Virus genome (UHGV): UHGV-0124847
Reading direction: 5' to 3' (one strand)
DNA: 19,129 bases
DNA from: a virus
The translations under genes and the position numbers were made by a program. The stretch's first letter is position 1. Every line of letters begins with the position of its first letter. The notes beneath the pieces are model-generated. The model ran no database searches. It was not told the origin of the DNA and worked only from the letters and a program-made list of their open reading frames with translations. Shown here piece by piece: positions 8,753 to 18,107 of the stretch.

Positions 8753-9052
8753 TCAAATAAGTGGTTTGCTGCCTAATTTCATTTTCTGGCGACCAACACA
8801 AGTCACACCCATTTCACTGCGTGGCTTGCGGTAGTAAATACGATTCTGTTTACTCTCGACTTCTTCTGTCTTCTTGCAGCGAAGGCTTCCGAGTGATGCT
8901 GCTTTATCTGCTCTGACGCAACCAGAGAGCTTTAGCGCAATCTTTCGCGCCAGTCGCTGCTCTTGCATTGCCTGTTCACGTTGAGCCTGTCTGCGTGCTC
9001 TGCGGCGATTTCTGGCGTTATCGTCAGCCAGATATGTAATGACTACTGCCAT
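8753..9052 (-). CDS. N: N-type transcription antitermination protein
   Basis: 99-aa ORF with an N-terminal arginine-rich motif (NARNRRRARRQAQREQ). C-terminus (YYRKPRSEMGVTCVGRQKMKLGSKPLI) parallels the lambda N C-terminus (WYSKPGERGITCSGRQKIKGKSIPLI). GGAGG Shine-Dalgarno; nutL upstream. Confidence 0.85.
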   Translation of the reverse strand: MAVVITYLADDNARNRRRARRQAQREQAMQEQRLARKIALKLSGCVRADKAASLGSLRCKKTEEVESKQNRIYYRKPRSEMGVTCVGRQKMKLGSKPLI

Positions 9053-10829: not shown

Positions 10830-10875
10830 CGCTCTTTAACAGTCATGGTCCTCATTCCCGCCGAAATGCGGGAAT
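10830..10875 (+). promoter_or_regulatory. nutR (boxA CGCTCTTTAAC plus boxB hairpin)
   Basis: boxA directly after the cro stop; boxB is ATTCCCGC-CGAAAU-GCGGGAAT at 10854..10875. Core identical to nutL. Confidence 0.7.
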
Positions 10876-10931: not shown

Positions 10932-11210
10932 ATGCAACTTACAAGTACTCGCAAGAAAGCGAATGCAATTACAAGCAACATCATGAATCGAATTGCTGTA
11001 CGTGGTCAGCGAAAGGTTGCCGACGCGTTAGGGATTAATGAATCGCAAATTTCGCGATGGAAAGACAGCTTTATCCCAAAGATGGCCATGCTTCTGGCTG
11101 TTCTTGAATGGGGTGTTGAAGACGAGGAGTTGGCGGAACTGGCTAAGAAAGTAGCCAGAATGCTGACAAAAGAAAAAGCCCCGAAGAACGGCGAATTCTT
11201 CGAGGCCTGA
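10932..11210 (+). CDS. cII: CII transcriptional activator
   Basis: 92-aa ORF matching lambda CII across the HTH and tetramerisation region (KSQISRWK...IPK.SMLLAVLEWGV). Confidence 0.9.
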   Translation: MQLTSTRKKANAITSNIMNRIAVRGQRKVADALGINESQISRWKDSFIPKMAMLLAVLEWGVEDEELAELAKKVARMLTKEKAPKNGEFFEA

Positions 11211-11406: not shown

Positions 11407-12214
11407 GTTAGCTGATTACAGGCCTCAACTGGAGGTCGTGGAGCATCGCGTGGCAGATACCGAAGATGGTTTCATGCGCGTTGCTAACGAGATTACCGAC
11501 GGTCTGCTGATGGCTGATTTAACCGTCCGGCAGTTGAAGGTGATGCTCGCTATCATGCGCAAGACATACGGATTCAATAAGCCGATGGATCGACTCACAA
11601 ACACGCAGATAGCAGCCATGACAGGTATTCATCACACTCATGTTTGCGCTGCCAAGCGCCAGCTTATTGAGCGTAAATTCCTCATTGCTGATGGCGTGAA
11701 AATCGGAGTGAACAAGGTGGTTTCGCAGTGGATTAGCCAGGACAGCTTAACATTAGCTAAAACAGCTAATAAAACATTAGCCAAGTCGGCTAATGGGTAT
11801 AAGCCAAGTCAGCTAAACACAAAAGACAATATACAAAAGACAATAAATACAAATACCCCCTTACCCCCTAACGGGGGTGGCGATGGGCAGGTTAAACCTG
11901 AACGTCGCAAGGCGGAACGAATCGACTACGAATCCTTCCTGAACGCCTACAACACCGAAGTCGGTGACAGACTGCCACACGCTGTTGCGGTCAACGAGAA
12001 ACGCAAACGCCGCCTGAAGAAAATCATCCCGCAACTGAAAACGCCAAACGTGGACGGTTTCAGAGCGTATGTCAGGGCGTTTGTGCATCAGGCCAAGCCG
12101 TTTTACTTCGGAGACAACGACACGGGCTGGACGGCTGATTTTGATTACCTGCTGAGAGAAGACTCGTTAACGGGAGTTCGGGAAGGGAAGTTTGCAGACA
12201 GGGGGATTGCATGA
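11393..12214 (+). CDS. O: Replication initiator (phage O-like, replisome-organizer N-terminal domain)
   Basis: 273-aa ORF. N-terminal region ([55 protein letters not shown]) is typical of phage replication protein O N-terminal DNA-binding domains. The coding sequence contains an iteron array. Confidence 0.85.
11733..11880. other. Putative replication origin inside the initiator gene: dyad iterons, A-rich tract, GC palindrome
   Basis: Repeated about 17-bp dyads: TTAGCT-aaaac-AGCTAA (11753..11769), TTAGCC-aagtc-GGCTAA (11777..11793), taAGCC-aagtc-AGCTAA (11800..11816) at 23-24 bp spacing. Then an A-rich stretch (11817..11860) and CCCCCttaccccctaacGGGGG. Confidence 0.6.
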
Positions 12215-13587
12215 GACAGGATATCGAAGCGAGCGTTATCGGTGGCCTGCTGATTGGTGGATTAACTCCAACTGCCAGCGACGTTCTGGCAACGCTGGAG
12301 CCGGAAGCGTTTTCAATTCCGCTCTACAGGAAAGCCTTCGAGGTTATCCGCAAGCAGGCGAGAAACAGAAACCTAATCGATGCGCTGATGGTTGCCGAGG
12401 CGTGCGGAGAGGAGCATTTCACCTCAATCCTGATGACCAGCAAAAACTGCCCGAGTGCCGCAAACCTGAAGGGATATGCCGGAATGGTCGCGGATAACTA
12501 TCACCGCCGTCTGGTGCTGGAAATCATGGATGAAATGCGTGAACCAATTCAGAGCGGAACCATCGACGTATCGAGTCAGGCGATGGATGAACTTGTAAAG
12601 CGTCTTTCAGTCATCAGAAAGCCACGTGACGAGGTAAAACCTGTACGGTTAGGGGAAATCATCACCGACTACACTGACACGCTTGACAGGCGTCTGAGGA
12701 ACGGAGAAGAGTCAGATACCCTGAAGACCGGAATCGAAGAACTTGATGCCATCACCGGAGGGATGAACGCAGAAGACCTGGTGATTATCGCCGCTCGTCC
12801 TGGTATGGGGAAAACCGAACTGGCGCTGAAGATTGCCGAAGGTGTGGCAAGCCGCGTTATTCCTGGTTCTGACGTCCGGCGCGGGGTATTGATTTTCTCA
12901 ATGGAAATGAGCGCATTGCAGATTGCAGAGCGAAGCATTGCCAACGCCGGGAGGATGTCGGTTAGCGTACTGCGAAATCCTGCATCGATGGATGACGAGG
13001 GCTGGGCACGTGTTGCTAACGGCATGAGTCAGCTTGCAGATTTGGATGTATGGGTAGTCGATGCTTCGCGGTTATCGGTCGAAGAAATACGCTCAATCGC
13101 AGAACGGCATAAGCAGGAAAATCCAAACCTGTCACTCATCATGGCGGATTATCTTGGCCTGATTGAGAAGCCGAAAGCAGACCGCAACGACCTCGCAATT
13201 GCTCACATCTCCAGAAGCCTGAAGGCGATGGCGAAAGACCTGAAAACACCGGTTATCTCCCTGAGTCAGCTTTCGCGCGATGTTGAGAAGCGACCAAACA
13301 AACGCCCGACAAACGCAGATTTGCGTGATTCAGGAAGCATTGAACAGGACGCAGACTCAATCATCATGCTCTATCGGGAAGCGGTATATGATGAGAACAG
13401 TAGCGCCGCGCCATTTGCTGAAATCATCGTGACGAAAAACCGTTTTGGCTCGCTTGGTACAGTTTACCAGCGGTTCTGCAACGGACACTTTGTTGCATGT
13501 GACCAGGATGAAGCCAGACAGATTTGCACAGCATCAAATGCACCTGCTGCGCGTGGCAGACGATATGCACAAGGGGCTGACGTATGA
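12211..13587 (+). CDS. Replicative DNA helicase, DnaB family
   Basis: 458-aa ORF with Walker A ([15 protein letters not shown]), Walker B-like ([10 protein letters not shown]) and a DnaB C-terminal region ([17 protein letters not shown]...[20 protein letters not shown]). Start overlaps the O stop. Confidence 0.9.
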
Positions 13588-13664
13588 CCATCTACATCAC
13601 TGAGCTAATAACAGGCCTGCTGGTAATCGCAGGCCTTTTTATTTGGGGGAGAGGGAAGTCATGA
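13584..13664 (+). CDS. Possible 26-aa hydrophobic micropeptide ([26 protein letters not shown])
   Basis: ATG overlaps the helicase stop (GTATGA) and its stop overlaps the ninB ATG (TCATGA). Single hydrophobic helix. The same span forms a terminator hairpin, so coding status is uncertain. Confidence 0.3.
13613..13645 (+). terminator. Intrinsic terminator-like hairpin between the helicase and ninB
   Basis: AGGCCTGC-tggtaatc-GCAGGCCT perfect 8-bp stem followed by TTTTTATTT. Confidence 0.5.
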
Positions 13665-14101
13665 AAAAACTAACCTTTGAAATTCGATCTCCAGCACATC
13701 AGAAAAACGCTATTCACGCAGTACAGCAAATTCTTCCAGACCCAACCAAACCAATCGTAGTAACCATTCAGGAACGCAACCGCAGCTTAGACCAAAACCG
13801 AAAGCTTTGGGCTTGCCTTGGTGACGTCTCTCGTCAGGTTGAATGGCATGGTCGCTGGCTGGATGCAGAAAGCTGGAAGTGTGTGTTTACCGCAGCATTA
13901 AAGCAGCAGGACGTTGTTCCTAACCTTGCCGGGAATGGCTTTGTGGTAATAGGCCAGTCAACCAGCAGGATGCGTGTAAGCGAATTTGCGGAGCTATTAG
14001 AGCTTATACAGGCATTCGGTACAGAGCGTGGCGTTAAGTGGTCAGACGAAGCGCGACTGGCTCTGGAGTGGAAAGCGAGATGGGGAGACAGGGCTGCATG
14101 A
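13661..14101 (+). CDS. ninB: NinB (Orf-family recombination mediator)
   Basis: The protein from [68 protein letters not shown] matches lambda NinB as I recall it. The track ORF starts at an upstream TTG; the ATG at 13661 is preferred. Confidence 0.9.
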   Translation: MKKLTFEIRSPAHQKNAIHAVQQILPDPTKPIVVTIQERNRSLDQNRKLWACLGDVSRQVEWHGRWLDAESWKCVFTAALKQQDVVPNLAGNGFVVIGQSTSRMRVSEFAELLELIQAFGTERGVKWSDEARLALEWKARWGDRAA

Positions 14102-17160: not shown

Positions 17161-17345
17161 ACGCCACAATTCAAACGATACCAGAGCTTCTTATCCAGAC
17201 ACGAGGCAATCAGACCGAAGTGGCAAGGATGCTTTCCTGCGCAAGAGGAACAGTGCTCAAGTACAACCGAGACAGCAAAGGCGAGCGTCACGCAATAGTT
17301 AACGGCGTCCTGATGGTCAAACAGGGCAAGAGGGGAAGACGATGA
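17157..17345 (+). CDS. ninH: NinH-like small HTH protein
   Basis: 62-aa ORF whose YGNQTEVARxLxCxRGTVxKY...HAIVNxVLMV region parallels lambda NinH. Confidence 0.75.
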   Translation: MNATIQTIPELLIQTRGNQTEVARMLSCARGTVLKYNRDSKGERHAIVNGVLMVKQGKRGRR

Positions 17346-17965
17346 GACTCGAAAGCGTAGCTAAATTTCATTCGCCAAAAAGCCCAATGATGAGCGACTC
17401 ACCACGGGCTACGGCTTCTGACTCTCTTTCCGGTACTGATGTGATGGCTGCTATGGGGATGGCGCAATCACAAGCCGGATTCGGTATGGCTGCATTCTGT
17501 GGTAAGCACGAACTCAGCCAGAACGACAAACAAAAGGCTATCAACTATCTGAAGCAATTTGCACACAAGGTATCGGGGAAATACCGTGGTGTGGCAAAGC
17601 TCGAAGGAAATACTAAGGCAAAGGTACTGCAAGTGCTCGCAACATTCGCTTATGCGGATTATTGCCGTAGTGCCGCTACGCCGGGCGCAAGATGCAGAGA
17701 TTGCCACGGTACAGGCCGTGCGGTTGATATAGCCAAAACAGAGCAGTGGGGGAGAGTTGTCGAGAAAGAGTGCGGAAGATGCAAAGGCGTCGGCTATTCA
17801 AGGATGCCAGCAAGCGCAGCATATCGCGCTGTGACGATGCTAATCCCAAACCTTACTCAACCCACCTGGTCACGCACTGTTAAGCCGCTGTATGACGCTC
17901 TGGTGGTGCAATGCCACAAAGAAGAGTCAATCGCAGACAGCATTTTGAATACGGTCACACGTTAG
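17342..17965 (+). CDS. Q: Q late-gene antiterminator (lambda type)
   Basis: 207-aa ORF essentially colinear with lambda Q as I recall it (MRLESVAKFHSPKSPMMSDSPRATASDSLSGTDV...), including the Cys-rich zinc region (CRDCHGTGR...CGRCKGVGY). Confidence 0.9.
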   Translation: MRLESVAKFHSPKSPMMSDSPRATASDSLSGTDVMAAMGMAQSQAGFGMAAFCGKHELSQNDKQKAINYLKQFAHKVSGKYRGVAKLEGNTKAKVLQVLATFAYADYCRSAATPGARCRDCHGTGRAVDIAKTEQWGRVVEKECGRCKGVGYSRMPASAAYRAVTMLIPNLTQPTWSRTVKPLYDALVVQCHKEESIADSILNTVTR

Positions 17966-18036: not shown

Positions 18037-18071
18037 TGACTCAACGATGGATAAATGCACTCGTTAAATAA

Positions 18072-18107
18072 AGCCCTGAGTTAATAGCTCGGGGCTTTTT
18101 GCGTTTT
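18072..18107 (+). terminator. Intrinsic terminator close to pR' (tR'-like)
   Basis: AGCCCTGAG-ttaatag-CTCGGGGCT (9-bp stem, one G.U) followed by TTTTTGCGTTTT, about 30-60 nt after the predicted pR' start. Confidence 0.65.

Follow-up and report, generated by a model that had tools for sequence, protein, structure and literature searches.

The helicase-ninB junction of a lambdoid virus genome very probably carries the tR2 terminator inside the ninA reading frame

Genomic context of the helicase-ninB junction

The window (the whole stretch of DNA that was analysed, 19,129 nt of virus genome UHGV-0124847) encodes N-like, cI-like, Cro, CII, O-like, DnaB-like, NinB, NinC-like PAPS reductase and Q-like products, in the order cro, cII, O-like, DnaB-like, the element studied here, NinB, NinC and, further on, Q-like. 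Upstream of the element lies the gene of a 458-aa DnaB-like replicative helicase of the P22 gene 12 type (12211-13587, plus strand; phrog_19, E 4e-136), whose homologues are annotated as such in JEP4, P22 and ST104. Downstream lies ninB, encoding the Orf recombination mediator (13661-14101, plus strand), which was assigned from phrog_72 (E 4e-58) and from the annotations of phage records. Both flanks thus confirm the helicase-ninB junction named in the original prediction.

A gene for an N-like antitermination protein is found on the minus strand (8753-9052; phrog_271, E 2.6e-36), and a pattern match revealed a nutR-like site on the plus strand between cro and cII (10830-10874). The latter consists of a boxA-like sequence, CGCTCTTTAACA (10830-10841), followed 13 nt on by a 7-bp boxB-like hairpin, TTCCCGC-CGAAAT-GCGGGAA (10855-10874), and its position and resemblance suggest that it would be the nutR-like site matching the N-like gene. 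The window annotation further places a Q-like antiterminator gene at 17342-17965.

In lambda, tR2 keeps pR transcription from reaching the nin genes and Q as long as the polymerase has not been modified by N, and the nin5 deletion removes everything from ren-ninA through ninI. The element of the window occupies the same kind of position, following the replication genes and preceding both ninB and Q. Two other terminator-like hairpins were seen in the window. One, a strong hairpin on the minus strand (11176-11208), has 14 pairs and a T-run, lies at the 3' end of the cII-like gene and is placed like the lambda oop RNA terminator. The other, on the plus strand (18070-18098), is a strong 13-pair hairpin followed by TTGCGTTTT, about 100 nt 3' of the Q-like gene, a place that in lambdoid phages is taken by tR', the late-operon terminator under Q control.

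Layout of the interval and identity with lambda tR2

The interval at 13584-13664 (plus strand) is a 26-codon mini-ORF that appears in the ORF list and corresponds to ninA. The full-length peptide aligns with phrog_5907 (E 1.6e-19) and covers residues 1-26 of a 27-position profile, and ninA is annotated at this place in the P22 records BK000583 and X78401. Its ATG (13584-13586, in GTATGA) shares bases with the helicase TGA (13585-13587) and its TGA (13662-13664, in TCATGA) shares bases with the ninB ATG (13661-13663), so that the reading frame and both of the overlaps that had been claimed for it are borne out. The helicase gene carries the SD-like motif AAGGGG (13571-13576) in its 3' end, seven nucleotides before the start codon of ninA; the anti-SD duplex of this motif has an energy of -6.8 kcal/mol, within the top 5% of background.

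The helicase stop codon is separated from the hairpin by a spacer (13588-13612) that consists of ninA codons 2-10. The tR2 hairpin itself (13613-13636) was recognised by terminator scan, fold, identity with lambda and the X78401 annotation, and is composed of the 5' arm AGGCCTGC (13613-13620), the loop TGGTAATC (13621-13628) and the 3' arm GCAGGCCT (13629-13636). In the terminator scan it forms a perfect 8-bp stem with six G-C pairs and an 8-nt loop, followed by the U-tract TTTTATTT (13637-13644). The G-rich ribosome-binding region of ninB, GGGGGAGAGGGAAGTC (13645-13660), comes directly after the U-tract and doubles as ninA codons 21-26; a ribosome_binding_site is annotated at this region in phage MG40. 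The sequence of the junction in the window is GACGTATGACCATCTACATCACTGAGCTAATAACAGGCCTGCTGGTAATCGCAGGCCTTTTTATTTGGGGGAGAGGGAAGTCATGAAAAAA.

The 41-nt core folds with -16.1 kcal/mol (z = -3.8), a stability reached by none of 200 shuffles, which together with the terminator scan substantiates the hairpin and T-run of the original prediction. In the fold of 96 nt, the start region of ninA paired over a long range with that of ninB; with z = -1.8 this was not taken as a feature. A scan of the whole window against Rfam at gathering thresholds returned no match and is uninformative, as intrinsic terminators are not Rfam families. Since the ORF list contains 74 ORFs of 20 aa or more within 4.5 kb, a 26-codon ORF is by itself within chance. 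The two other reading frames across the interval contain stops.

Over its 81 nt the interval has a single, silent difference from lambda NC_001416, while the hairpin and U-tract are identical. Positions 13610-13643 match, base for base, the TR2 / TR2-cut oligo aacaggcctgctggtaatcgcaggcctttttatt of Li et al. (2016, PMC4824070). When phage records were searched with the junction by megablast, 416 of them matched. A ninA CDS is annotated in P22 X78401 with 'terminator ... tR2' inside it and in P22 BK000583 with 'terminator L2; similar to phage lambda' inside it, and the record of phage MG40 carries both a terminator and the ninB RBS. The exact peptide has entries in NCBI and UniRef (K7PHM1) under the name 'NinA protein'. 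Of 5426 complete E. coli genomes, 2077 (about 38%) carry the element; in these, PGAP calls only the two flanking genes and not ninA.

Comparison with lambda tR2, which lies between ren and ninB and is removed by nin5, shows the same hairpin, loop, U-tract and ninB RBS base for base, the same place in a pR operon 5' of ninB, and an N-like antiterminator gene in the window. The upstream gene differs, being ren in lambda and a P22-type DnaB-like helicase here, and this indicates that the module has been joined to a different replication cassette. P22 (X78401, BK000583, M10074) has the complete arrangement: gene 12 helicase, ATGA, 26-codon ninA with tR2, ATGA and ninB, with 93.7% identity over 301 nt. 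The P22 ORF deviates from that of the window at six nucleotides, four of them synonymous and two conservative (I9V, S26T). The order in which a replication gene runs into ninA with start/stop overlaps is shared by P22, lambda, ST104 and others.

Taken together, 13584-13664 is very probably the intrinsic (Rho-independent) tR2 terminator of the lambdoid pR operon, located inside the ninA frame. The original prediction had left the choice between a terminator, a small ORF or both; the terminator is fully supported by identity with lambda tR2 and by its annotation as such in P22 records, and the ORF is annotated as NinA and its translation is probable. The tR2-in-ninA element is already known, as the mini-ORF has long been annotated and its interplay with the terminator has been dissected experimentally. 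In vivo, lambda tR2 reaches efficiencies of up to ~0.9 (Li et al. 2016, PMC4824070), and in vitro it releases transcripts at the U7 and U8 sites (bioRxiv 10.64898/2026.05.29.728758). By analogy with these mapped sites, release in the window is expected at about 13642-13643.

Conservation of the terminator and of the reading frame

Related loci were gathered via NinB and the ninB start, which gave a comparative sample of about 170 unique haplotypes, compared with roughly 3100 copies in E. coli. The full element was contained in 157 unique extended haplotypes spanning six upstream gene contexts (ren, helicase, orf30 and others). A degenerate scan for the ninB start in metagenomes yielded mostly unrelated genes starting MKKLTFEI, and true ninB loci alone were kept. 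Variants seen in two or more haplotypes are referred to as established.

Across the 157 haplotypes, no established variant and five singletons were observed at the 16 stem and nine U-tract sites, with one singleton falling in the U-tract, and ten established variants were observed in the 26-nt 5' spacer. One stem singleton, a C-to-T change (L029), keeps its pair as G-U. In another haplotype (L039) a 1-nt deletion shifts the frame of the ORF tail and leaves the hairpin untouched, and an L-to-Q change within the hydrophobic stretch occurs in seven haplotypes. About 15% of ninB loci are without a hairpin directly upstream; the G-rich RBS region of ninB is retained in these as well. The invariant stems and U-tract, the different hairpin that HK97-type phages have at this place, and the retention of the hairpin where the ORF is shifted or split identify the terminator, and not the exact peptide with its tail above all, as the hard constraint on the element.

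The left border of homology falls exactly at the ninA ATG (window 13584) in six contexts. Right borders in relatives were located at window positions 13653 to 13659. The 81-nt module is far more conserved than both of its flanks, joins at least six upstream and at least five downstream cassettes, and behaves as a conserved linker where lambdoid modules swap.

These patterns bear on the possibility that the element is a terminator only, with the ninA ORF an accident of the GC stem, the U-tract and the G-rich RBS that is either untranslated or has no selected role. Such a reading would account for the stems and U-tract being the invariant part and for the survival of the hairpin in frame-shifting or frame-splitting variants (L039, the HK97-type T6/T7 variants and the endonuclease insertion). 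It would also account for the hydrophobic core of the peptide, as G, L, V, I, A and F are the residues that U at second codon positions and the GC-rich stems specify. Open frames of 26 codons often arise by chance, although the other two frames have stops, and PGAP does not annotate ninA. Against it stand the SD-like motifs before the ATG in unrelated contexts, the left homology border exactly at the ATG, the overlap of the ORF stop with the next start in different downstream contexts, and the substitution pattern of codons 2-10, where synonymous changes are in excess and established second-position changes are absent. The lambda NinA start was also described as 'not weak' (Li et al. 2016, PMC4824070). 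An element that is nothing but a terminator is therefore possible but not the likely case. Frame-disrupting variation that keeps the hairpin, which the original prediction had named as the mark of a pure terminator, does occur among relatives; the substitution pattern of codons 2-10 is nevertheless coding-like.

Translation of ninA

The ninA ORF stands out from chance because it is conserved, is preceded by SD-like motifs and has overlaps at both ends across relatives. An SD-like motif was found 6-9 nt before the ninA ATG in seven of eight unrelated upstream gene ends, with anti-SD duplexes of -5.9 to -11.6 kcal/mol compared to a background median of -2.4 (Fisher combined p 3e-5). At the other end, the stop codon of the ORF coincides with the following start codon in five downstream contexts. 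The junction is ATGA both with ninB and in SE16 and GTGA in VT2-Sakai, while the overlap amounts to 8 nt in Stx2_4151 and to 14 nt in HK97.

Established variants in codons 2-10 are distributed over codon positions 1, 2 and 3 as 3/0/7, and seven of the ten are synonymous and three nonsynonymous (binomial p 0.002-0.006). When HK97-type copies are added, seven synonymous changes face five nonsynonymous ones, all conservative (p 0.01-0.02). For ninB, which served as a positive control, the corresponding numbers are 82 and 40. Considering C-to-T changes, the five synonymous ones are all established and the three nonsynonymous ones are all singletons (Fisher p 0.018). The substitution, SD and overlap tests for use of the ORF are post hoc, involve few events and are of modest weight; what they offer is suggestive.

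Ribosome profiling of lambda was reportedly carried out by Liu et al. in 2013. Li et al. (2016, PMC4824070) credit the start site of NinA to that work and to Kroger and Hobom (1982), and found the lambda NinA start (in plasmid W48) to be 'not weak'. In the same study, tR2 efficiency was 0.72 with an active NinA start and 0.86-0.87 when the RBS or the ATG was mutated. We conclude that the ninA ORF is probably translated.

The SD-like motifs in unrelated genes, the overlaps in mosaic contexts and the coding-like codons 2-10 are what would speak for NinA as a selected translated element, either a membrane peptide of 25-32 residues that lambdoid phages conserve or a relay that tunes the leakiness of tR2 and feeds the first nin gene, and we consider this unlikely. 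A narrower version, in which NinA is an independently acting small membrane peptide, with one TM helix and a basic C-terminal tail, whose DNA the terminator merely shares, appears distinctly unlikely. The peptide does have about 20 mostly hydrophobic residues followed by GRGKS, resembling a short TM segment with a positive tail, codons 2-10 show conservative or synonymous substitutions (I/V, L/I, I/M, T/A), the family is recognised as phrog_5907 and as NinA in UniRef, and HK97-type copies have a hydrophobic core of equal length despite a different hairpin. Yet the peptide tolerates L-to-Q, G-to-E and K-to-E changes and frame-shifted tails, one lineage has an insertion that splits the ORF, and it is the terminator sequence that dictates the hydrophobic core. 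In addition, the whole nin region is dispensable in lambda, as nin5 shows. As RNA terminated at tR2 does not extend to the stop codon of ninA, any peptide would have to come from read-through RNA only. A search for the cognate antisense RNA or dedicated promoter of a type I toxin gave no promoter-like site on either strand near 13500-13700 and no Rfam match in the window. An independent function for the 26-residue hydrophobic NinA peptide is possible.

Proposed role of the element

The effect of ribosomes on tR2 depends on distance (Li et al. 2016, PMC4824070). Termination efficiency rose with the length of the natural spacer, from 0.25 at 8 nt through 0.53 at 13 nt, 0.73 at 18 nt and 0.83 at 23 nt to 0.92 at 28 nt. 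A ribosome that stops near tR2 blocks the terminator (0.15-0.25 at 5-8 nt), and terminators that lie no more than 100 nt into an ORF are for the most part spared repression by ribosomes. In the window, the helicase stop is 25 nt from the 8-bp stem, or 26 nt by the definition of Li et al., and according to their spacer series this is the distance where ribosome repression of tR2 just fades. The ATGA junction sets the stop-to-stem distance in every upstream context.

Polymerase arriving from the replication genes would make the GC-rich hairpin and U-tract and release the RNA at the U7/U8 positions, a step that was shown for the identical lambda sequence and is carried over to the window. Early in infection or without N, little transcription would then reach ninB, the other nin genes and the gene of the Q-like activator, and once modified by N, polymerase would read through tR2; lambda, the N-like gene and the nutR-like site all point in this direction, and by analogy the N-like protein of the window is expected to permit such read-through. 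The ninA ORF would have a supporting part in this. Its first 9-10 codons (codons 2-10) probably act above all as an insulating spacer, whose fixed length of 25-26 nt just keeps the ribosome at the helicase stop off the folding hairpin. On read-through RNA, the ATGA overlaps at both ends could pass ribosomes from the helicase gene across the hairpin to the ninB start, and this passage across tR2 might keep the nin genes translationally linked on N-antiterminated transcripts.

The value of the result lies mainly in annotation, in that the prophage carries the canonical tR2 barrier, presumably suppressed by N, between its replication genes and its nin/Q region. In lambdoid phages, including Stx-converting relatives with the same element, the tR2 barrier times the activation of late genes. 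A NinA mini-ORF that is more than a translated spacer would be an incremental addition to well-known biology.

An alternative to a barrier lifted by N would be a leader-peptide attenuator, in which the progress of a ribosome on ninA gates the tR2 hairpin and thereby provides N-independent control of the nin genes and Q. As in the trpL, thrL and pyrBI leaders, a short ORF is coupled to an intrinsic terminator, here 30 nt from the AUG, and the position of ribosomes affects the hairpin, since those stopped nearby repress tR2 and an active NinA start lowers its efficiency from ~0.87 to 0.72 (PMC4824070). Unlike those leaders, the element lacks an antiterminator structure and regulatory codons: minimum-energy and centroid folds of 96 nt and 41 nt contained no antiterminator alternative and kept the terminator stem, and the 26-aa peptide has no single-amino-acid run or programmed stall site. 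Leader attenuators are overcome by ribosome stalling, whereas tR2 is overcome by the N protein. With no hairpin competing with the stem, no regulatory codon run, a terminator in the part of an ORF that largely escapes ribosome repression and a small effect of NinA translation, a classical attenuator is unlikely, and this form of control, which the original prediction had entertained, finds no support here and is highly improbable.

Variant elements and rearranged loci

In HK97 and its relatives, the first 32 nt of the element are kept and then lead into another hairpin, GGGGCTAT...ATAGCCC (-14.3 kcal/mol), which is followed by T6ATT and occupies the same 36-nt space. HK97 gp56, a 32-aa ORF after the helicase gene, shares with the ninA of the window these 32 nt, the N-terminus, the ATGA with the helicase stop, and a hairpin and U-tract of equal place and equal 36-nt length. 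It differs in the sequence and register of the stem (GGGGCTAT... as opposed to AGGCCTGC... here), in its longer tail and in a 14-nt overlap with gp60, with ninB lying one gene further downstream. Strict covariation between the tR2 and HK97-type hairpins was considered and rejected, as the stems are in different registers and therefore represent two alternative hairpins, not a single helix with compensatory changes. HK97-type loci were found at L355 701-799 (HK97 gp56) and in L043- and L064-type sequences, upstream of a gp60-like gene. The tail of the ORF is put into another frame by indels that change the U-tract between T6 and T7 (L064, L026), with the hairpin left intact, and the HK97-type ORF is 22, 32 or 35 aa long with this variation.

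A second variant is seen in L056, L239 and Stx2a_WGPS6 (L359), where a 203-aa endonuclease gene splits the 5' part of ninA from the hairpin. The hairpin is intact in these loci and directly adjoins the TAA stop of the inserted gene. The latter (L056 758-1500) encodes an HNH-type endonuclease and ends immediately 5' of the tR2 stem. By analogy with the published spacing data, ribosomes translating up to a stop that abuts the hairpin should suppress the terminator. A 34-aa 'type C' ORF in L056, which had been a candidate for an ORF without a hairpin, was rejected, as it is the 5' part of ninA reading into the inserted endonuclease gene.

Contig L131 has two ninB starts (3982 and 4210, minus strand), each with a partial copy of the element joined at ATCGCAGGCC in the 3' arm of the hairpin; one copy comes after a helicase fragment and the other after a ninB fragment, and the locus is either a rearranged defective prophage or a misassembly. 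Lambda-identical ninB/tR2 sequences were also present on low-coverage contigs of non-enteric assemblies (L007-L020 and others), among them Pseudomonas, Oceanobacillus, Bradyrhizobium, Shewanella and Nocardioides, and most likely represent contamination with lambda control DNA. Finally, many of the 32-aa HK97-type peptides are called 'histone H1' at NCBI, which is evidently a misannotation.
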